This document shows, one piece after another, positions 421-31,661 of a stretch of 32,000 nt of DNA. Position 1 is the stretch's first letter. Each line of letters opens with the position of its first letter. The DNA is from Microcystis aeruginosa NIES-843 (GTDB lineage: Bacteria > Cyanobacteriota > Cyanobacteriia > Cyanobacteriales > Microcystaceae). The stretch lies in NCBI RefSeq assembly GCF_000010625.1, contig NC_010296.1:1290001-1322000 (forward strand), read 5' to 3'. The notes beneath the pieces are model-generated. The model did not search any database and was not told the DNA's origin. It saw nothing but the letters and a program-made list of their open reading frames with translations. Made by a program: the position numbers and the translations under genes.

Positions 421-1860
421 ATGCCTTCGCCAGAATCTGCTCCGCTATTATCACAACTGCAAAAAAAAGTCAATAGTTTAGATGTACCATTTTATGCACC
501 AGGGCATAAGCAGGGGGAAGGAATCGGGGAAGATTTAAGTAATTTACTGGGAAAAAGCGTCTTTAAAGCCGATTTACCCGAATTACCCGACCTTGATAAT
601 TTGTTTGCCCCGACGGGGGTGATTAAAGAAGCGCAAATTTTAGCAGCCGAGACATTTGGGGCAGATAAAAGCTGGTTTTTAGTCAATGGCTCCAGTTGTG
701 GCATTATTGCGGCGATTTTAGCCACTTGCGGCGAGGGAGATAAAATTATTTTGGCGAGAAATATTCATAAATCGGCAATTTCGGGCTTAATTCTCTCTGG
801 GGCGCAGCCTATCTTTATCAATCCCGAATATAATCCCACTATCGATCTAAATTTAAATATAACCCCCCAATCCCTCGAAAATGCCCTGAAACTTCATCCC
901 GACGCCAAAGCGGTGATGGTAGTCTCTCCCACCTATCAAGGGGTTTGCTGTGACTTAGAAACTATCGCCCAGATTACCGATCATTATTCTATCCCGCTGC
1001 TCGTCGATGAGGCTCACGGGGCGCATTTTGCCTTTCATCCCGATTTACCTCCGGCTGCCCTGTCTCTCGGCGCTGATATGGCTATTCAGTCCACCCATAA
1101 GGTTTTAGGGGCCTTAACTCAAGCATCAATGTTACACTTAAAAAGCGATCGCATTAGTTCCGAAAAAGTCGATCGAGCCTTACAATTAGTTCAAACCACT
1201 AGCCCTAGTTATTTGCTTCTCGCTTCCCTTGATAGTGCTAGAAAGCAAATGGCGACGCAAGGACTAGATTTACTGACCAAAACCCTCGATTTAGCCGCTT
1301 CGGCCCGAAAAGAACTCGATAAAATCCCTAATATCTCTGTTTTAGACTTTCCCCATTCTATCCCGGGTTGTCACTGGTTCGATCGCACTCGTTTAACGGT
1401 AATCGTCAAAGATTTTGGCTTAACTGGTTACGAAATAGACGATATTTTGCGAGAAAAATACGCCGTCACCGCAGAATTACCGACTTTAAGCCAACTTACT
1501 TTTATTATCTCCATCGGCAATCATCGCGAACACATTAATCGCCTAATTACTGCTTTTCAATGCCTTAAATCCCCTTCCTCTACCAGTTTACCCCCCACTC
1601 CTCCCCCAGTCACGGGAAATTTGGCTATTTCTCCTAGAAAGGCTTTTTTTGCCCCTACAGAGATAGTATCCCAGAAAAATGCCCTCGATCGTCTTAGTGC
1701 TGATGTTATCTGTCCCTATCCCCCCGGTATTCCCGTTTTGATGCCGGGAGAGTTAATTTCTCAGGAAATCCTCGACTATCTGCAAACTATTTTAGACCTC
1801 GGTGGCACGATTACCGGCGGTAGTGATGATAATTTAACTACTTTCAGGGTTTTAAAATAA
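421..1860 (+). CDS. PLP-dependent Orn/Lys/Arg decarboxylase family protein
   Basis: 479-aa ORF. It has the LVDEAHGAHF and IQSTHKVLGALTQASMLH (PLP-lysine S-x-H-K) blocks typical of the Orn/Lys/Arg decarboxylase major domain, and a C-terminal PYPPGIP block. Confidence 0.85.
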   Translation: MPSPESAPLLSQLQKKVNSLDVPFYAPGHKQGEGIGEDLSNLLGKSVFKADLPELPDLDNLFAPTGVIKEAQILAAETFGADKSWFLVNGSSCGIIAAILATCGEGDKIILARNIHKSAISGLILSGAQPIFINPEYNPTIDLNLNITPQSLENALKLHPDAKAVMVVSPTYQGVCCDLETIAQITDHYSIPLLVDEAHGAHFAFHPDLPPAALSLGADMAIQSTHKVLGALTQASMLHLKSDRISSEKVDRALQLVQTTSPSYLLLASLDSARKQMATQGLDLLTKTLDLAASARKELDKIPNISVLDFPHSIPGCHWFDRTRLTVIVKDFGLTGYEIDDILREKYAVTAELPTLSQLTFIISIGNHREHINRLITAFQCLKSPSSTSLPPTPPPVTGNLAISPRKAFFAPTEIVSQKNALDRLSADVICPYPPGIPVLMPGELISQEILDYLQTILDLGGTITGGSDDNLTTFRVLK

Positions 1861-3255
1861 TCGCAAAATTATCTGATATATTAACCGGAAAAAGGCGGTA
1901 ATAGCAATTGCTCCGATGGCTGCCATCACGGCAATGATAGCAATTTCAGGAAAATTTAGGCTTCCTTGCAGTTGCGAAAGAAAGAAGATGAGGGTGAGGG
2001 TAATTGCTGCTAGAATCGGTAAATCTCTCCCTTCAATCACTTTTTTAAATAATGCCAAAACTAAGCCACCTAAGATCATAAAAGCGATGACAATTCCTAG
2101 CGAGGGGAGTAAACTATTTAAGGCAATTACTAATAATGTCCCCTCAAATCCTGTAAAGGCAGCATTAGCGAAGGTTTCCCCAAGAGAAAAGCGGGAAGTT
2201 TTTCTAATCACTGGAGAAGCTGGAGGGGATGGAGGAATTGGGGAAGCTGGAGGAGATGGGGAAGATGGAGGAATTTGAGAAGCTGGAGGAGATGGGGGAG
2301 GTGTATTTAAAGCGGTTAAAACTTCTCCACAGGATTGAAATCTATCCAGGGGATTTGCTAGTAACATTTTATTGAATACTCTTGCTAAATCTGCACTGAT
2401 GTTGGGGGCATAATTTTGCCAATTCCAGACCTGTTTTTGGGGATCGTATAGATCATCAGGATCGCGATTAGTTAAGAGTATAACACAGGTAGCTGCTAGG
2501 GCATATAAATCTGTGGCTGCCGATACCTGATTGCCTAATTGTTGTTCGGGAGGAGCAAATCCAGCTGAGTAAATTGTTGTGGATTTCTCTTGTGTATTAC
2601 TAGGGTTATTGGTAGCCTGTTTTACTGCCCCAAAATCGAGTAAATAGAGGCGGCCATTTTGGGAGCGCATGATGTTAGATGGTTTTATATCCCGGTGAAT
2701 GGAACCATTTTCATGAATAAATTTGAGGATAAGAAGTAATTCTTTGAGAATGTTTTTGACTTCACTTTCTTGAAAGGGTTTTTGTTGCTGTTGGAGAATT
2801 TCTTCTAAGTTTTTACCGTCGATATATTCCTGGGCCAGATAGAAAAATTGCTCTTCTTTTCCCGTTAATTGATTCTTGACTGTTAAAGGGAAAAAAGCAT
2901 AGAGATCGGGGATTTGGGGATGTTCTCGTCCTAAATCTTCTAAAACGTGCGCTTCTTGAAAAAATAAATTTTTCGCTTTTTCTAAAGCTTGCGGACTTAA
3001 ATTACCGGAAGGTTGAAATTGTTTGAGTACACATTTAGCTTTTTTGGGACTATAACGATCTACTGCTAAAAATGCCGCCCCAAATCCTCCTTGTCCCAAT
3101 AGACGTTCTGGCAAATAACGTCCCCCTAAAATTAATGGCATCCCGCAAGTAGTACAATATTTCTGCTCGATCGAGGTTAAGCGATTGCTATCGTCTAGGT
3201 CTGGGCATTGATTACGCGGTCTCGGACAGTGGGGACGCGTACAAATAACTTCCAT
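1852..3255 (-). CDS. Ser/Thr protein kinase with N-terminal Cys-rich zinc-ribbon-like region, Pro/Ser-rich linker and C-terminal multi-helix membrane domain
   Basis: Hanks kinase motifs GQGGFGAAF, HRDIKPSN, DFG and APPE. The N-terminus has CxxxxC...CxxC, and the C-terminal ~110 aa are hydrophobic. The ORF track starts at a TTG (3303); I prefer the ATG at 3255 (MEVICTRPHC). Confidence 0.85.
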   Translation of the reverse strand: MEVICTRPHCPRPRNQCPDLDDSNRLTSIEQKYCTTCGMPLILGGRYLPERLLGQGGFGAAFLAVDRYSPKKAKCVLKQFQPSGNLSPQALEKAKNLFFQEAHVLEDLGREHPQIPDLYAFFPLTVKNQLTGKEEQFFYLAQEYIDGKNLEEILQQQQKPFQESEVKNILKELLLILKFIHENGSIHRDIKPSNIMRSQNGRLYLLDFGAVKQATNNPSNTQEKSTTIYSAGFAPPEQQLGNQVSAATDLYALAATCVILLTNRDPDDLYDPQKQVWNWQNYAPNISADLARVFNKMLLANPLDRFQSCGEVLTALNTPPPSPPASQIPPSSPSPPASPIPPSPPASPVIRKTSRFSLGETFANAAFTGFEGTLLVIALNSLLPSLGIVIAFMILGGLVLALFKKVIEGRDLPILAAITLTLIFFLSQLQGSLNFPEIAIIAVMAAIGAIAITAFFRLIYQIILRLF

Positions 3256-6283: not shown

Positions 6284-6361
6284 ACGGGGGACTAAGGGTA
6301 GGGTTGATTCATGAATCAACCCTACTATGAATCAACCCTAGTACTAAGGGGGTATCGAACC
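6284..6361. repeat. MITE-like small repeat containing a 26-nt perfect palindrome
   Basis: TAGGGTTGATTCATGAATCAACCCTA (6299-6324) is a perfect palindrome, followed by a direct re-iteration ATGAATCAACCCTAG. The ends ACGGGGGACTAAGG... and ...GGGGGTATCGAACC recur at 18764-18904. Confidence 0.6.
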
Positions 6362-6501
6362 TAAAAACTATTTTTAATTTAATTATAACCAGCTACTTAA
6401 AGTCCTCAAAAGTAGTAACTTTTTCTGGCAATTTGTCCTGTAGTTAAAACAAACAAAAGAGAGAAATAAATTCTCTCTTCTGCAACCGAGGGGAAGTTAT
6501 T

Positions 6502-7303: not shown

Positions 7304-7440
7304 CATAAACTTAATTATCGATGGGATGCACAATTTTGATCTTAGTCACTGGCTCTGGGGGATTTCTCAGGAAAAGGGAGAAAAAAACCCAGACCCTTCA
7401 TAAAATTTTACACCGCTCACAGACAGTTCGTCCATATCAG

Positions 7441-7537
7441 GGGGTGGGAAGTGGGGGAGTGGGGAGATTTTTCAGTTATCAGTAAGCAGTAAACAGTAAT
7501 CCGTGGGGGAGTGGGGAGAAGGGAGAAGGGAGAAAAA
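7441..7537. repeat. Composite STRR block (G-rich GGGGAGT/GGGAGAA units, TTATCAG, CAGTAAA)
   Basis: Read directly: ggggtgggaagtgggggagtggggag...cagttatcagtaagcagtaaacagtaat...gggggagtggggagaagggagaagggag. The unit families match those at 228-418, partly in inverted orientation. Confidence 0.85.
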
Positions 7538-11039: not shown

Positions 11040-11278
11040 TAGGGTTTGCTGAAAAAGTTTGTTGGTGGGGTTAGGAGTCGGTCGTCAGGAGTCTCCGAGT
11101 CAGGAGTCGGGAGTTTCAGGCTTTGTTGCCCTCTCTTTTTGTACCAACTTATGTACTACAAGAAGGATAATGCAAGGTTTTTGATGGTCCCAATCCGATT
11201 TTCGCAGCATGAACATCGGATTTTAACAGGTCAAAAGCCTTATTTTAAAAGGGTTTTACCATTATTCAGCAAACCCTA
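11040..11278. mobile_element. MITE (about 235 bp, non-autonomous) with 12-bp perfect terminal inverted repeats and TA flanks
   Basis: GGGTTTGCTGAA (11042-11053) and TTCAGCAAACCC (11265-11276) are perfect inverted repeats, each flanked by TA. The interior has GAGTC-type tandem units and a hairpin ATCCGAT...ATCGGAT. It has no credible coding capacity. Confidence 0.65.
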
Positions 11279-17039: not shown

Positions 17040-17622
17040 AAGCTGATTTTCGCCCACTTGAGCGAGACAATTTTTTTGTTAACTTTCTCGGTCTATTTTA
17101 ACCCAGATTCCCCACTGCAAAATCTGGTATTGTAAATCTGACCTCCTCACCGCGCTCTCCGTGGCGGTGATGACTGGCAGCTCAAACGGGCTTAAATAAA
17201 CGATCTTCGCCTAGGTTGATGCTCGATCGAGACGCTTACCATCTCTAAATTTTCTAGAACTATCGTTTAGTTCTCACGGACAATTCTAGTAGATAGTTTC
17301 TGCAAGAAATCAGGCTGATTGTCTTTAATCTTGGCCTAGATTTGAGCTAGTTTTCCAGATTTCTGCCTTCTTTGGCTCGCTTTTTTCGGTCTATCATCTT
17401 TTATTTGTGCTTTTTTACAGCCTTTCTCCTAAAATTGACTCCTAGCTCCTGACTCCTGACTCACTAAAACGACAACTTCGCATCTCACCATTAAGATAGC
17501 TGCTGTAACACTTATAGAAAACACTGTCCCATAGACAATTATTTTTAGTCTATGATACAATCAGAACACTTCGCTTGTCATATTAGGTTAGGCGAGAATG
17601 AAAATTAGCACTAAAGGTATTT

Positions 17623-18672
17623 ATGAATAAAAGCTACGTTATTTGGAACAATAAAGGCGGAGTTGGCAAAAGCACTATTACTTTTCACGTTGCATCTATG
17701 TATGCAGAAGAAAACTTAGATCGAAATGTTGTAGTTATAGATATGTGTCCACAAGCAAATTCCTCGGTAATGCTTATGGGCGGTGGAATGAAAGCTGAAA
17801 ACTATCTTCAAGAGCTAATTATTAAAGAGACTCCTAGAACCGTAGTTGGCTATTTGACAGATAGTGCTTTAAAGAAAGATACAAGTGATGCTAATCGATA
17901 CTTGCTTCAATTAAAAGCAATTAATGATAATTTGTCACCAAATATTTTTTTAATGTGTGGTGATGGAAATCTTGAGTTAATTGCGCCTCTTTTAGCAGAC
18001 AGAGCAAACACAGTACCCCTATCAAGTGCAGATTCTCCCTGGGTTGAAATACATTCTATTATGAAGAACTTTACAGAACGCTCTATTTTTGGTAAGCCCA
18101 CTACATTTTTTATTGATACTAATCCTAGTTTTTCAATTTATACACAAATTGCAATTTTATCAGGACAGAAACTATTGATTCCTATAAATGCTGATGATTC
18201 TTCAATTTATGCCATATCTGGGTTGTTTAATCTAGTTTGGGGAACAGAAAAAGAACATCCCGTATATGGTAATTATACATTTGCCAATAAAGTTCATAAG
18301 TATGGGCTAGAGAGACCCAAAATCGCCTTGCTTTTGGGAAATAGATTTACTCAGAAAAGTGGTACCGCCCACGCTTTTAAAGCATTGTCAGAAGAGGCTG
18401 TCAGAAAAATGTTTTCAGAGTATCAAAGAAATAAATGTCGTTTTGTTGATGGGGACAAATACAACTATGATGAAGCACAGTTTGAAAAAGCATATAACTA
18501 TGAAATAAGAGATTTTAATAGTGCTGGAGTAGTATCCGCCAATCAAGGATTACCCTTGAGCAAAATGTTAGATACACCTCATTATTTAGTTTATAAAGAA
18601 GATATACAGGTCTCGAAAGACCAGAGAACAAAATGCCATAGTGTGATTAAAAAACTTGTCGCAAGATTATAA
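17623..18672 (+). CDS. ParA/MinD-superfamily P-loop ATPase, orphan (no adjacent partner gene), with a long C-terminal extension
   Basis: Deviant Walker A NNKGGVGKST at residues 9-18, A' motif VVVIDMCPQANSS, Walker B TTFFIDTNPS and the IPINADDSS block. At 349 aa it is about 100 aa longer than minimal ParA proteins. Confidence 0.85.
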   Translation: MNKSYVIWNNKGGVGKSTITFHVASMYAEENLDRNVVVIDMCPQANSSVMLMGGGMKAENYLQELIIKETPRTVVGYLTDSALKKDTSDANRYLLQLKAINDNLSPNIFLMCGDGNLELIAPLLADRANTVPLSSADSPWVEIHSIMKNFTERSIFGKPTTFFIDTNPSFSIYTQIAILSGQKLLIPINADDSSIYAISGLFNLVWGTEKEHPVYGNYTFANKVHKYGLERPKIALLLGNRFTQKSGTAHAFKALSEEAVRKMFSEYQRNKCRFVDGDKYNYDEAQFEKAYNYEIRDFNSAGVVSANQGLPLSKMLDTPHYLVYKEDIQVSKDQRTKCHSVIKKLVARL

Positions 18673-19060
18673 AATTTGATTGCACCACAAAATACGAACA
18701 AAAATTACAGAACTATGAAAAATAATCGAATCTTCTGGCTCTTCGGTTTGTGTTATGCAATAGACGGGGGTTATAAGGAATGAAACCCTTATAGAGACAG
18801 ACATTACCGCAATTTTTGTCAATTATTTTCGATCTAGAGCGAACTAATCAATTAAATCCCTTGCCAGATAAGGATTTAGTCGATTTATGCCCCCCTATCG
18901 AACCATACCAAGTCCCGAAGAGCCAATCTTCTCTTGATTAATACTTGGCTAATTTATTACTGACGATGTAGATAGTTTCAAAAATAATGCAATCGCTCTA
19001 CATTAGCTCTACATTTTTGTTACACTGAACTCCATCTAACAGATCGATGCTAGATAACAG

Positions 19061-19090
19061 GAAAGCGATCAAGAAAACTTGATCGCTTTC
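19061..19090. other. Perfect 13-bp stem / 4-nt loop hairpin in the non-coding stretch downstream of the ParA-like gene
   Basis: GAAAGCGATCAAG-AAAA-CTTGATCGCTTTC read directly. No U-tract follows on either strand, so it is not a canonical terminator. Confidence 0.5.
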
Positions 19091-19317
19091 GTCTAGTTCA
19101 AAATCCTCATCAGCAGCGAAAACGGCTTGATATTAAATATAAATCTCAAGACAAAACTTGATCAAAAATCATAGTTATCTTGACATGATATCCTTATCAA
19201 ACTAAGGGATTATTCCCTGAAAAACTGGCAACTTTTTTGACTATAATAACGACAAGATTATCGGTATAGTTTTAAACTATCCTAGGATAAGCCCTATCTC
19301 GATCGCAATATATATTT

Positions 19318-20349
19318 ATGAAATTTAGTGAAATTGCCCAAAAATTAAGTCCTTTAGTACAATCCCAGAGTTTGACCGCCTATCCCGACAGAAATCCCCA
19401 AATTAAAGCCATAACTCCCATCGAAACCGCCCTAGTCGATACCATTAGCTATATCGAAGGGGGAAAATTTGCTTCCTTTGTCGCCAAAACTGACGCTACT
19501 GCCCTAATTCTGCCCCTGGATAGCAATTTACAACAACAGGCCGACGAACGCGGCATCGCTTGGTTAGCTAGTGCCAATCCCCGACTTTTATTCGCCCACG
19601 CCATCAAATTATTCTATCAACCCTTTCAGCCCCAACCCTACATTCACGCCACCGCCGTGGTGCATCCATCGGCTAAAATCGGCCATAAAGTCGCCATCGG
19701 GGCCCATGCCGTGGTAGAAGCCAATGTCACCCTCGGTGATGGTGTTTGCATTCATCCTAACGCCGTTATTTACCCCGGGGTGCATATTGGTGATCGCACA
19801 ATTCTCCACGCTAACTGTACCATCCATGAACGGGTACAAATCGGCAATGATTGCGTTATCCACAGTGGCGCCGTTATCGGTGCTGAGGGCTTCGGTTTTG
19901 TGCCGGTTCCCGAAGGCTGGTTTAAGATGGAACAATCCGGTATCGTGGTCTTAGAAGATGGGGTAGAAATTGGCTGTAATAGCACCGTTGATCGCCCGGC
20001 AGTGGGAGAAACCCGCATCGGTAGCCAGACTAAGATCGATAATCTCGTCCATATTGCCCATAATTGCCAAATTGGCCAAGCTTGCGCCCTAGCAGGACAG
20101 GTGGGCATGGCAGGAGGCGTAAAATTGGGCAATCGCGTTATTTTAGCAGGACAGGTGGGCATTGCCAATCAAGCAGCGATCGGGGATGGTGCGATCGCAA
20201 CCGCCCAAACTGGCATTCACAACGATATCGGGGCAGGAGAAGTGGTTTCTGGCTCTCCCGCTATGCCGCATAAACTATTCCTCAAGGTAGCAGCCGCTTA
20301 CAAGCGTTTACCCGAAATCTATCAAGCGGTTAAGCAGTTGAAAAAATAG
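19318..20349 (+). CDS. lpxD: UDP-3-O-acylglucosamine N-acyltransferase
   Basis: 343 aa. It has the N-terminal LpxD-type domain, a long left-handed beta-helix of hexapeptide repeats (IG..V.IG.., repeated), and a C-terminal helical tail. Confidence 0.92.
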   Translation: MKFSEIAQKLSPLVQSQSLTAYPDRNPQIKAITPIETALVDTISYIEGGKFASFVAKTDATALILPLDSNLQQQADERGIAWLASANPRLLFAHAIKLFYQPFQPQPYIHATAVVHPSAKIGHKVAIGAHAVVEANVTLGDGVCIHPNAVIYPGVHIGDRTILHANCTIHERVQIGNDCVIHSGAVIGAEGFGFVPVPEGWFKMEQSGIVVLEDGVEIGCNSTVDRPAVGETRIGSQTKIDNLVHIAHNCQIGQACALAGQVGMAGGVKLGNRVILAGQVGIANQAAIGDGAIATAQTGIHNDIGAGEVVSGSPAMPHKLFLKVAAAYKRLPEIYQAVKQLKK

Positions 20350-20358
20350 CCCTATTCA

Positions 20359-20456
20359 GGGGACAGGAGACAGGAGACAGGAGACAGGAGATTATTTTTA
20401 TTTATTCTCCCTTCTCCCCACTTCCCCACTTCCCCACTTCCCCACACCCCACTTCC
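20359..20456. repeat. STRR arrays: (GGAGACA)x4, then (CCCCACTT)x3-4 with one CCCCACA unit
   Basis: Read directly: ggggacaggagacaggagacaggagacaggag ... ccccacttccccacttccccacttccccacaccccacttcc. Confidence 0.9.
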
Positions 20457-20462
20457 GTTACA

Positions 20463-21147
20463 GTAGAGCAGGAAGTCGCCTTCCCACCCCCTGCTTCAAA
20501 ACCGGACTTACGACTTTCGCCGTATCCGGCTCCTGAGTAACTAGGCTACTGTCATTAGTAGAATAATAATGGGAATTATTATTTCCTTGTCTATTCAACC
20601 CTCTTGGCTGTATCCCCACCAGACAAGATTGTTGGTTTTAGGGCGTATATGACCGTTGATTGTTGCTTAGACTTCCTAGTTACCCGTCCTTTGTCAGCAT
20701 ATCTTTGATATTACTCAAAGCCTTGGCTTTTAAGGACATCCTCTCCCTCTATTGACTTGCGGATGGTTTCCTACTGCCCCAAACGGGCAGAGTCAATCAG
20801 GGTTACTTCGTTCCCTATAACCATTGGTTGAACCATTAGGATGATACTGTCCACAACAGAGTAACGGGAATGCCTTACTGATAGTGGTATGAGCTATCAG
20901 CCCCAACTCTGTTAACTTTTGTTTCGAGCCTGTCAGCCTTTTGGCTCGTGGGTGTTGACGATGGTTAATTCGTATCTTCGCCCCAGGGCTATCCATAGGT
21001 TCTGGCTCAACGGGTTTCTGATTTAGGCTATCAGATACCGCTTTTTTTCCTCGCTCACTACCTCAGATGTACCAAGTCTAAAGCAGCAGGAAATGCCGTC
21101 ACTCTAGGCATCTAGAGGACAGGACTAAGGTTATTACTAACCCGCAC
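20463..21147 (-). mobile_element. ORF-less group II intron (ribozyme only, no reverse transcriptase/maturase ORF)
   Basis: The minus strand starts GTGCGGGTTAG at 21147. Domain V, GAGCCGGATACGGCGAAAGTCGTAAGTCCGGTTT (20532-20499), has the AGC triad, a 2-nt bulge and a GAAA tetraloop. A domain VI-like hairpin (GGAAG-GCGA-CTTCC) follows, ending ...CTAC. Compatible DI/DII/DIII/DIV helices are visible. The 3' boundary is uncertain by about 10 nt, and an alternative GTGCG lies at about 21240. Confidence 0.75.
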
Positions 21148-21237
21148 CTGTAGGGTTATAAAGTTATCAAGGTACTACATTTACCAAGCGGCTAATCCTC
21201 TAAACGTCTTACTGTCTAGTTTCTAGCCAACGAATCG

Positions 21238-21297
21238 CACCACACCCCACACCCCACTTCCCACACCCCACACCCTACACCCCACACCCCACACCCC
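21238..21297. repeat. STRR array of CCCCACA heptamers with variants
   Basis: Read directly: caccacaccccacaccccacttcccacaccccacaccctacaccccacaccccacacccc. It ends 8 nt before the ggt GTG start. Confidence 0.9.
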
Positions 21298-21304
21298 GAT
21301 CAAA

Positions 21305-22849
21305 GTGACTCGCAAAAGCAAGGGCGCTATCGCCGCAGGACATCCAAAAACTGCCGAAGCTGGACAATTAATCTTAGAAATGGGCGGAAATGCCTTCGAT
21401 GCGATAGTTGGCTCGATTTTAGCGGCTTTCGTGGTCGAATTCACCCTCGCTTCGGCGGGGGGCGGCGGTTTTTTACTAGCACATACCAAAGAAAAAGTCA
21501 ATACCCTTTTTGATTTTTTTTGTCAAACTCCAAAATATAAAAAACCCTTGACAAATATCGACTTTTACCCAGTGGCGATCGATTTTGGTGGTGCTAGTCA
21601 AGATTTTCACATTGGCCGAGGTGCGATCGCTACGACTGGGGCGTTACGGGGATTGGAAACAGTGCAGAAAAAACTGGGAAAATTGCCCTTTGCCGTGGTA
21701 GCGGAACCAGCGATCGAATATGCTCGACAAGGCTACATTTTGAGCCAATATAACGGCTTTTGCCTGGGTTTACTCGCTTCGATCCTGCTCAAAGATAGAG
21801 AGGGCTTAAAAGTCTATGCTCCCCAAGGAAAACTCCTCCAAGCTGGCGATCGCTGTGTGATGAGGGATTTTGCCAACAGCTTAGAGGAATTAAGCAAAAA
21901 AGGCGTAAAAGACTTTTATGAGGGAGAAATCGCCCACCAAATCGCCAAGGATATGCAGGAGGGTGGTTATCTCACCCTAGAGGATTTAAATCATTACCAA
22001 GTCCTTGAGAGAAAACCCCTAAAAACCGAATATCGGGGTTACGAAATACTGACTAATCCGCCTCCTAGTTCTGGGGGAATTCTCCTAGCTTTTGCCCTAA
22101 AATTACTAGAAGCAGTTAATTTATCGGCTTTAGAGCATCTAGGAGCCAAACATCTGCAAATTTTAACGGAGGTGATGGCCTTAACCAATCAAGCGCGCGC
22201 CCAAGGCTACGATAATTTTATCCATCAGGAGGGAATCGAAGAGCAATTCCTCTCGTCGGAATTTTTAGGCAAATATCCCAATAAATGGGGCAGTACCACC
22301 CATATTAGTGTTATCGATGGGGAAGGTAATGCCGCCAGTGCCACCTTTTCCAACGGGGAAGGATCAGCTTATACCGTGCCGGGGACGGGAATTATGCTCA
22401 ATAATATGATCGGGGAAGCGGACTTAAATCCCTTTGGTTTTCACAATTGGCCGGTTGATCGTCGTTTATCCTCAATGATGTCCCCGACGATGATTTTAGA
22501 GGAAGGAAAGCCGCGATTTGTTCTCGGTTCTGGGGGTTCCAATCGCATTCGCACCGCTATTTTGCAGGTTATTAGCAATTTAATCGATTTTCGGCAATCT
22601 TTAGCTGATGCGATCGCTGCCTCGCGCATACATTGGGAAAATCAACAATTAGGAATTGAACCTTTAGAAGATCGGGAAAATATGCTCAAAAATCTGGTTT
22701 TACCCGCAAATACTCAAGTATCCCGTTGGCAAGAACAAAATATGTTTTTTGGGGGTGTGCATGGGGTGGCAGTGAATGATCGGGGGGAATTAACCGCTAC
22801 GGGCGATCCGCGTCGGGATGGAGTAGGATTAGTGATTAGGGATTTTTAG
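21305..22849 (+). CDS. ggt: Gamma-glutamyltransferase family protein (no obvious signal peptide)
   Basis: N-terminal GAIAAGHPKTAEAGQLILEMGGNAFDA block. The autoprocessing/nucleophile site is GSTTHISVIDGEGNAAS. Also present are MLNNMIGE and the C-terminal GGSNRI and GDPRRDG blocks. Confidence 0.88.
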   Translation: MTRKSKGAIAAGHPKTAEAGQLILEMGGNAFDAIVGSILAAFVVEFTLASAGGGGFLLAHTKEKVNTLFDFFCQTPKYKKPLTNIDFYPVAIDFGGASQDFHIGRGAIATTGALRGLETVQKKLGKLPFAVVAEPAIEYARQGYILSQYNGFCLGLLASILLKDREGLKVYAPQGKLLQAGDRCVMRDFANSLEELSKKGVKDFYEGEIAHQIAKDMQEGGYLTLEDLNHYQVLERKPLKTEYRGYEILTNPPPSSGGILLAFALKLLEAVNLSALEHLGAKHLQILTEVMALTNQARAQGYDNFIHQEGIEEQFLSSEFLGKYPNKWGSTTHISVIDGEGNAASATFSNGEGSAYTVPGTGIMLNNMIGEADLNPFGFHNWPVDRRLSSMMSPTMILEEGKPRFVLGSGGSNRIRTAILQVISNLIDFRQSLADAIAASRIHWENQQLGIEPLEDRENMLKNLVLPANTQVSRWQEQNMFFGGVHGVAVNDRGELTATGDPRRDGVGLVIRDF

Positions 22850-28313: not shown

Positions 28314-28459
28314 GTAGGATGGGTTAGCGGTAGCGTAAACTATGCGGGCGTTGGGTTTCATGCTTCAACCCAACCTACGTTCTACCTCAAAATCGGTAAA
28401 ACCCTACACCCCACACCCCACACCCTGCCCCCACGACAAACTTTTTCAGCAAACCCTAC
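28314..28459. repeat. Composite MITE-like repeat: long hairpin module, CCCCACA heptamers, then a MITE terminal sequence
   Basis: GTAGGATGGGTT (28314-28325) pairs with AACCCAACCTAC (28367-28378). An inner GTTGGGTT...AACCCAAC stem is present. Then ccccacaccccacaccctgcccccacgacaaaCTTTTTCAGCAAACCCTA, the same end as the MITE at 11040-11278. Confidence 0.6.
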
Positions 28460-31511: not shown

Positions 31512-31661
31512 TTTCAGTTATCAGTTATTAGTTATCAGTTATCAGTTATCAGATGTGAGTTTTTAGTTTACTGTTTACTGTTTACTTAAAAAGCTCCCCA
31601 CACCCCACACCCCACACCCCACACCCTGCCCCCACCGAAAAACTTTTTGCCGCAAACCCTA
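31512..31661. repeat. Composite STRR block plus a MITE terminal sequence filling the intercistronic spacer
   Basis: (TTATCAG)n at 31515-31552, (TTTACTG)n at 31566-31586, (CCCCACA)n at 31597-31626, then ctgcccccaccgaaaaactttttgccgcaaacccta. The final cta is the complement of the stop codon of the upstream permease gene. Confidence 0.85.

Follow-up and report, generated by a model that had tools for sequence, protein, structure and literature searches.

An ORF-less group II intron in a heptanucleotide repeat array between lpxD and ggt of Microcystis aeruginosa NIES-843

The spacer between lpxD and ggt in Microcystis aeruginosa NIES-843 contains a group II intron that lacks a protein gene. The intron is 784 nt long and lies on the minus strand at 21240..20457 of the window, by which we mean the whole 32,000-nt stretch of DNA that was analyzed (contig NC_010296.1, positions 1,290,001 to 1,322,000 of the forward strand). 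Our analyses revealed a precise, polymorphic insertion with group II ends, a conserved ribozyme architecture, and complementarity between RNA and target at every site, and they show that the family to which this intron belongs has moved recently. The element is very probably an intact, non-autonomous group IIB intron of the chloroplast-like (CL) cyanobacterial lineage that homes into repeat arrays, has been mobile in the recent past, and would depend on an intron-encoded protein (IEP) supplied in trans. As an intron without an open reading frame (ORF) it is of an already known type; the targeting of repeat arrays is the noteworthy part. A minus-strand, ORF-less group II intron had been proposed here by a reading of the DNA letters alone (the sequence-only reading), which named a covariance-model search as one check of its proposal. 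That search was positive, as Rfam model RF00029 (domains V/VI) matched 20534..20457 on the minus strand over model positions 1-77 with 55 bits (gathering score 40, E 2e-8).

Insertion borders, empty sites, and sibling copies

Empty sites were obtained through an exact look-up of the LpxD protein, which led to Microcystis contigs, among them GCA_000312265.1 and GCA_003389435.1 as well as the complete genome AP019314.1. In strains with an identical LpxD, the lpxD-ggt spacer was found empty and 150-240 bp long, and the presence of the intron is thus polymorphic among strains that encode the same LpxD. Removing exactly 21240..20457 from the window sequence gives back the heptamer register GGGGTGT^GGGAAGT (^ marks the junction). 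When the empty sites were aligned with the window and with sibling copies, the intron was seen to start with GTGCGATTCG at 21240 and to end with ...CTACTGTAAC at 20457; intron positions (p) used below are 21241 minus the window coordinate. The borders of the inserted DNA, GUGCGA...AAC, coincide both with the borders of the empty sites and with the limits of sibling identity. The 5′ splice-site consensus GUGCGA (21235..21240, minus strand) stands exactly at the insertion border in nine junctions, in agreement with the complete extent of 20457..21240 read from empty spacers and from siblings that align over positions 1-784.

The insertion is embedded in a tandem array of GGGGTGT/GGGGAAGT units. 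On the side of the 5′ exon, the heptamer array occupies 21240-21297, and the 3′ exon (20415..20456, minus strand) begins with a G at 20456, the intron-binding site 3 (IBS3), and continues as a GGGGAAGT/GGGGTGT array. The intron lies outside genes, as the sequence-only reading had stated: its neighbors are the LpxD ORF (19318-20349) and the gamma-glutamyltranspeptidase ORF of ggt (21305-22849), both on the plus strand, and the intron is intergenic and antisense to both.

Sibling copies were located through the internal ORFs of the intron and one metagenome scan. They are 98.6-100% identical to the window copy over positions 1-784, or as far as the contig end, and occupy at least nine different Microcystis intergenic loci; every one of them has the identical GTGCGA start and AAC end. 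Several intron-bearing contigs have an end within the intron or at the array next to it, as would be expected if assemblies break at repeats. Across seven copies we counted 20 variable positions, and the window copy has the majority base at each, which argues that it is not a fossil. The copies fall into two sub-variants, the window type and the type found at loci L137 and L144. The window type is present at several loci, and it must therefore have moved after it had gained the change in helix 14 described below. Orientation relative to neighboring genes is mixed, with some copies lying downstream of a gene on the same strand, from which they could be transcribed by read-through. Neither the exact domain V nor the 5′ end found a match in scans of viral contigs. 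A degenerate domain V pattern run on genome contigs returned 120 loci from many phyla and none from Microcystis, the pattern being too general and the likeness confined to domains V and VI.

Not every copy is whole. The copy at L143:1-289 (GCA_007095885.1, SFBG01000073.1) is missing domains II-III (positions 425-578) and domain V (713-761); a GGGTGT array continues to adjoin it, and its loop homologous to exon-binding site 1 (EBS1) reads UAUACC in place of CAUACC. Other sibling copies are split by insertion sequences, namely by IS630-like elements (L131:135-1281, L136:3410-4556, and L139) or by an ISL3 element (L135:12611-13867). The IS630-like element, which carries DDE_3, sits at intron position ~113-115, and the ISL3-family transposase gene follows intron position ~140. 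The copies at L137:2945-3000 and L144:1430-1489 occupy different loci with common flanks around the array (CCTAGGGGCAGGG...array...GGGGTTTTAYCGATTTT), indicating that some target arrays sit within a larger dispersed repeat.

Ribozyme architecture and related introns

The minimum free energy (MFE) fold of the 784-nt RNA arranges six domains round a central wheel at -259 kcal/mol (z = -6.8 relative to shuffles). For domains I-III we built an alignment of nine sequences, seven ORF-containing relatives among them (alignment A4), and derived a consensus with RNAalifold. It comprises 128 pairs in 24 helices, with 94.6% of the cells in standard pairs, compared with 33-43% when the partners were slid by 1-3 columns. 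Changes on both sides were observed in 70 of the 128 pairs, compared with 9-17 for slid partners, and none of 500 shuffles reached the observed values. Covariation supports domains I-III and domain V, and the support for domains IV and VI comes from folding and pairwise comparison.

Domain I (20807..21234, p7-434; this and all features below are on the minus strand), delimited from the A4 consensus and its pair counts, is closed by a basal stem of UUCGUU (p7-12) and AACGAA (p429-434), and helices 1-5 of the consensus, which covary, are formed by the first 93 nt of the intron. Between helices 11 and 12 lies a GAAA tetraloop receptor of the 11-nt type (UAUGG at 20993..20997 and CCUAAU at 20835-20840), which, judged by the known receptor motif, is the candidate partner (zeta receptor) of the domain V GAAA loop. 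Domain II (20745..20802, p439-496) consists of helices 19-21, with both-side changes in eight pairs of helix 19. Domain III (20686..20737, p504-555) consists of helices 22-24 and has AAGC...GAUAUGCUGAC motifs common to the relatives. Domain IV (20536..20685, p556-705) is about 150 nt long and is closed in the MFE fold by an 11-bp basal stem, GGGUAACUAGG/CCUAGUUACUC. Domain V (20499..20532, p709-742) is a 34-nt element with AGC triad, bulge, and GAAA loop, placed by RF00029. Domain VI (20460..20494, p747-781) has a GCGA loop and a branch-point A at 20464 that is bulged in both the Rfam alignment and the MFE fold. The intron ends at 20457 (...CUACUGUAAC), 7 nt past the branch point, and the spacing is the same in the relatives.

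Much of the secondary structure in the sequence-only reading is borne out by these results. Its domain V, with domain VI next to it, is the one found by RF00029, and the test it had named for the domain V helix turned out in its favor: among eight homologues all cells are paired, with compensatory changes in four of the five distal pairs. The pairings ATTGACT/AGTCAAT, GTCCTT/AAGGAC, and CTTTGA/TCAAAG that it had assigned to domains II and III recur in the MFE fold and in the covariation-supported consensus, and those it had assigned to domain IV, CTTGTCT/AGACAAG and AATAATAAT/ATTATTATT, are present in the MFE fold. Its pairing of GGGTTA with TAACCC found no support; in the MFE fold and the consensus, GGUUA and UAACC form a local hairpin that has GUAA as its loop, and the conserved GUAACCC contributes its CCC to the base of domain II.

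Related introns that carry a protein gene were found as well. L141 is a complete intron on the Fremyella diplosiphon plasmid AP018240 (4001-6427) and encodes a 607-aa RT-X-HNH protein, a reverse transcriptase (RT) whose frame extends into domain V (the ORF ends at 6421; domain V is 6353-6385). L147 lies on the Aphanizomenonaceae plasmid CP150887, where its protein is annotated as ltrA, and four further relatives were obtained through the protein family. The start GTGCGAYTCGTT.GCTAGAAAC is common to L141, L147-L151, and the Microcystis intron, whose first 86-96 nt match the 5′ ends of ORF-containing introns on Nostocales plasmids with 73-84% identity. Among proteins of solved structure, the L141 IEP is nearest to the T.el4h maturase/RT (PDB 6ME0, E 2e-108), which belongs to a system described as CL/IIB1 (PMC2882425). 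Membership of the Microcystis intron in the CL lineage is likely, judged from the homology of its domains I-III and V-VI to L141 and L147-L151 and not from an IEP tree. With the Plastid-ndhA-ndhB-2 model, domain V of the relatives passes the threshold, and the window intron scores 41.7 bits against 61. Class C (IIC) was considered and rejected, as the intron has a 34-nt domain V and an EBS2, and its 5′ exon is a linear G-rich repeat without a hairpin.

Two of the related loci have unusual settings. At L142:4001-5129, on plasmid pn1 of Nostoc sp. UHCC 0926, an ORF-less relative sits within the domain V GAAA loop of a degraded group II intron, forming a twintron, and its 5′ exon is GAGGAGCGGTGTGAGGTGAAAGT. 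At L150:271-4073 (Planktothrix serta PCC 8927, LR734879.1), the gene for the ribonucleotide reductase small subunit is interrupted by a group II intron (612-3015) and, farther along, by a group I intron (RF00028, 3303-3604, 69.5 bits).

Target recognition in GGGGTGT-type arrays

The sites occupied by the family are strikingly uniform. At all of the loci, at least nine in number, the intron is preceded by ...GGGTGTRGGGTGTG and followed by G, and each insertion lies within a heptamer array of the GGGGTGT type, always at the same base of the repeat. All nine of the 5′ junctions read have ...GGGTGT-R-G-GGTGTG before the intron, with R at -8 (one has an A at -1), and the 3′ exon begins with G in all seven junctions read on that side. 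For the window copy, the 5′ exon target inside the array is GGGUGU-GG-GGUGUG (21241..21254), with IBS2 at 21249-21254 and IBS1 at 21241-21246.

Complementary segments were found in domain I of the intron, giving 12-13 bp of EBS/IBS complementarity. EBS1, CAUACC (20886..20891, p350-355), is presented in the terminal loop CUCAUACCA (p348-356) of the hairpin p341-363 and pairs with GGUGUG at -6..-1. In all seven relatives analyzed (L141, L146-L151), the homologous loop complements the intron's own 5′ exon at -6/-5..-1/-2. The EBS2 candidate, ACACCC (20950..20955, p286-291), is single-stranded, precedes the helix p293-297, and would pair with GGGUGU at -14..-9; its homologous segment pairs with the respective exon at about -13..-8 in L146, L148, L149, L150, and L151. 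An alternative candidate register for EBS2 is CCCAC with GUGGG at -10..-6. The candidate for EBS3 is C392 (20849), which stands at the center of a conserved A-N-A internal loop. Its column in A4 (column 499) pairs with the +1 base in seven of eight sequences, six of them by Watson-Crick pairs, in what is a small sample. Just one other column reaches seven of eight, with three Watson-Crick pairs, and C392 was chosen for its larger number of such pairs. Across the relatives, the EBS1 and EBS2 loops co-vary with the exons, which confirms the assignment of these loops as well as the position of the 5′ splice site. An EBS3 in a domain I internal loop that pairs with the +1 base corresponds to the IIB arrangement; IIA introns use a delta position beside EBS1 instead.

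These pairings suggest how the intron would find its targets. The intron RNA would recognize DNA by pairing of EBS1 CAUACC and EBS2 ACACCC with GGGUGU-RG-GGUGUG and of C392 with the following G, and homing into GGGGTGT-type arrays in intergenic spacers would offer many harmless landing sites. Splicing is predicted to yield a ligated-exon junction of the GGGGUGUG^GGAAGU type, in which ...GGGGUGUG is joined to GGAAGUGGGG. Minus-strand occurrences of the same motif at 21261-21296, 28404-28425, and 31598-31626 of the window carry no intron, which indicates that homing is far from saturating; the latter two stretches are candidate unoccupied targets. We lean slightly toward a broader proposal, namely that this is an ORF-less family whose EBS1, EBS2, and EBS3 have become specialized for (GGGGTGT)n, with the intergenic arrays of Microcystis as safe landing pads throughout the genome. 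Such an array-homing family may be one source of polymorphism between strains and of variation in array length. Our literature searches returned no account of ORF-less introns in Microcystis or of group II introns homing into arrays of heptamers or of the short tandemly repeated repetitive (STRR) type, which is not proof of novelty.

The window is rich in intergenic heptanucleotide arrays (222-419, 7440-7534, 11073-11114, 17436-17462, 28401-28425, and 31514-31626). Their units include AGTTATC, TTACTGT, GGGAGAA, TGACTCC, CCCCACA, and others, and only the GGGGTGT type matches the EBS sequences of the intron. A different repeat structure directly follows the lpxD stop codon, where an imperfect hairpin (20357-20436) is formed by GGGGAGAAGGGAGA with CTCCTGT repeats. 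It is kept in the empty-site strains and may be the lpxD terminator. Sub-threshold matches to Rfam miRNA models in this segment were rejected as genes and reflect the GGAGA/TCTCC repeat hairpin.

Two other parts of the window were noted in passing. The segment between an ABC-transporter gene and lpxD (17058-19317) differs among strains: the window and L008 have an ORF for a ParA-like ATPase (17623-18672), in L003 the segment holds an IS605 OrfB/TnpB gene, and in L001 and L002 no gene is called. The segment 12642-14323 holds two neighboring gene pairs, each combining a nucleotidyltransferase gene (Polbeta/NTP_transf_2) with a HepT-like one in a toxin-antitoxin-type arrangement, according to precomputed Pfam calls on the orthologous loci L001-L003.

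Coding capacity, alternative explanations, and known counterparts

The sequence-only reading had found no RT gene in the element, and our searches agree with it. In tblastn with a related IEP, neither the intron nor the 32-kb window as a whole nor 215 kb of Microcystis loci yielded an RT, and the internal ORFs have no Pfam match. The 67-aa ORF in domain I (20793..20996), in which the earlier reading had seen no RT-like motif, was rejected as protein-coding, having no counterpart in seven related introns. A second spurious ORF of 53 aa (20458..20619) spans domains IV-VI, and its C-terminal part appears to be a remnant of the lost IEP frame: its C-terminus ...NDSSLVTQEPDTAKVVSPVLK resembles ...NLSQVIEEPDEVKVSRPVLK of the L141 IEP, in a weak match (blastx E 0.002). 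An N-terminal/Shine-Dalgarno remnant of the IEP gave a weak local alignment. The database matches of the 53-aa ORF were two Microcystis "hypothetical proteins" and nothing else; both come from ORF-less copies of the intron, and in M. aeruginosa PCC 9443 the ORF is annotated as a "conserved hypothetical protein." The expectation that protein-centered annotation would miss the element was correct.

These remnants are consistent with a descent in which an ORF-containing intron would have lost nearly its whole RT/maturase gene from domain IV. Splicing and retrohoming would then rely on an IEP that a related, ORF-containing intron at another place in the genome supplies in trans. We infer this from the TeI3/TeI4 system, in which experiments have shown ORF-less introns to be mobilized by the proteins of others (PMC2882425), and from the seven group II RTs reported to be encoded by M. 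aeruginosa NIES-843 (PMC8934634). Candidates for such a driver did not emerge from our protein searches: among the 120 cyanobacterial RTs listed in a search with the L141 IEP, none was named Microcystis, and a tblastn search for a parent IEP on plasmids gave matches dominated by enterobacterial introns.

Several results weigh against an intact, mobile intron driven in trans. The search through the 53-aa remnant led to no driver IEP, although whole Microcystis genomes were not scanned. There is no sigma-70-like promoter upstream on the intron strand, and a promoter/terminator scan of the spacer gave nothing above chance; the upstream neighbor, ggt, is divergent from the intron. In the window-type sub-variant, helix 14 is weakened by a C-U mismatch and a G-U pair, whereas it is perfectly paired in all relatives and in L137/L144. 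The Rfam models for domains I-IV (D1-D4) stayed below threshold, the best being RF01999 with 22.8 bits (gathering score 36, E 0.03). Since the ORF-containing relatives likewise have no D1-D4 match at E <0.01, these models fail to cover the lineage, and their result is uninformative either way. Finally, the window allele carries 21 nt more array than the nearest empty allele, with 17 nt (GGAAGTGGGGTGTGGGG) found on both sides of the intron. The lack of a driver IEP among the matches, the lack of a promoter-like site, and the weakened helix 14, together with the tblastn result, the antisense position, which makes splicing from an lpxD or ggt transcript impossible for the window copy, and the existence of truly decayed copies such as L143 and those interrupted by IS630-like or ISL3 elements, could be read as signs that this copy, perhaps the whole family, is a structurally recognizable but dead relic of a past burst with the IEP present and no longer splices or moves. 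The sequence-only reading had left the choice between a non-autonomous intron and a fossil open. We consider the fossil unlikely, because copies at no fewer than nine sites differ by at most 1.4%, the window copy equals their consensus, the derived window-type variant has spread to several loci after its changes, presence and absence vary among strains with identical LpxD, and the catalytic landmarks are all intact. These features, together with the good EBS/IBS pairing, favor the non-autonomous alternative.

The duplicated 17 nt, and the recombination-prone, strain-variable nature of the arrays, might also point to spread at the level of DNA, by recombination between heptamer arrays or by a transposase with target-site duplication, instead of RNA-guided retrohoming. 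This is highly improbable. Other copies have no flanking duplication beyond the repeat unit, the junction falls on a fixed repeat base within the EBS/IBS complementarity, and the element has neither terminal inverted repeats nor a transposase. Target-site duplication was rejected as the source of the 17-nt repeat because other copies do not have it and because arrays vary between strains independently, those of the intron-free L001, L003, and L007 differing in unit number; the 21-nt surplus probably reflects array polymorphism and not the mechanism of insertion. Hardly credible, lastly, are the limits set by the sequence-only reading, 21147..20463, which would make the upstream 93 nt ordinary spacer. 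Siblings and empty sites do give boundaries of the GUGCG...AC kind, which that reading had made a check of its proposal, but at another GTGCG than the one it had picked. There is indeed a GTGCG pentamer at 21147 and a CTAC at 20463; the pentamer, however, is intron position 94, and nine junctions, the relatives, and the empty sites all place the start at 21240. Empty sites lack these 93 nt, and all siblings long enough to cover them have them. They resemble the 5′ ends of ORF-containing introns and are part of covarying helices, and a junction at 21147 would have no EBS/IBS pairing at all. At the other end, identity between copies extends six bases beyond 20463. The sequence-only reading had thus overlooked the initial 93 nt of domain I, the actual exon junctions, and the specificity for the target.

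The closest precedent for the Microcystis intron is TeI3 of Thermosynechococcus elongatus (Mohr, Ghanem and Lambowitz 2010, PMC2882425), a set of ORF-less CL/IIB1 introns that arose through domain IV deletion and that driver IEPs mobilize in trans. Both are cyanobacterial IIB introns, TeI3 lost its ORF through deletion in domain IV and kept remnants of it, as the Microcystis intron appears to have done, both exist as many near-identical, mostly intergenic copies with good EBS/IBS pairing, and both would depend on the IEP of a related intron. The likeness extends to the proteins, as the IEP of the ORF-containing relatives of the Microcystis intron is most similar to T.el4h (PDB 6ME0) of the TeI3/TeI4 system. 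In contrast to TeI3, the Microcystis intron resides in a mesophilic bloom-former and belongs to a different lineage, its N-terminal ORF remnant is weakly recognizable, and its target is a heptanucleotide tandem array, whereas TeI3 targets are unique sites or other introns. With the RT-X-HNH introns of Nostocales and Oscillatoriales (L141, L147), it shares the 5′ end, the architecture of domains I-III, the positions of EBS1, EBS2, and EBS3, and the layout of domains V and VI, at ~75-85% identity in conserved blocks only. Those introns, however, carry an RT/maturase gene of ~570-620 aa in domain IV and occupy unique sites, often within genes.

Class C introns recognize stem-loops at terminators or attC sites, have a short domain V, and lack EBS2. 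Like these introns, and like RmInt1 in ISRm2011-2 (in part after PMC8919778), the Microcystis intron homes to an abundant and harmless repeated motif, and copies accumulate outside genes. It differs from class C in its 34-nt domain V and in pairing through EBS1, EBS2, and EBS3 with a linear simple-sequence repeat.

The intron is invisible to protein-based pipelines and is a source of spurious "conserved hypothetical protein" calls. In the lpxD-ggt spacer it places a stable antisense structure of 784 nt before the ggt start codon, which could influence ggt expression. Because its presence or absence differs between strains with identical neighboring genes, it provides a fine-scale marker for Microcystis populations. 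With this family, the few bacteria in which ORF-less introns proliferate come to include a mesophilic bloom-former, and retargeting to an abundant simple repeat would explain how such an intron can multiply without damage to genes.

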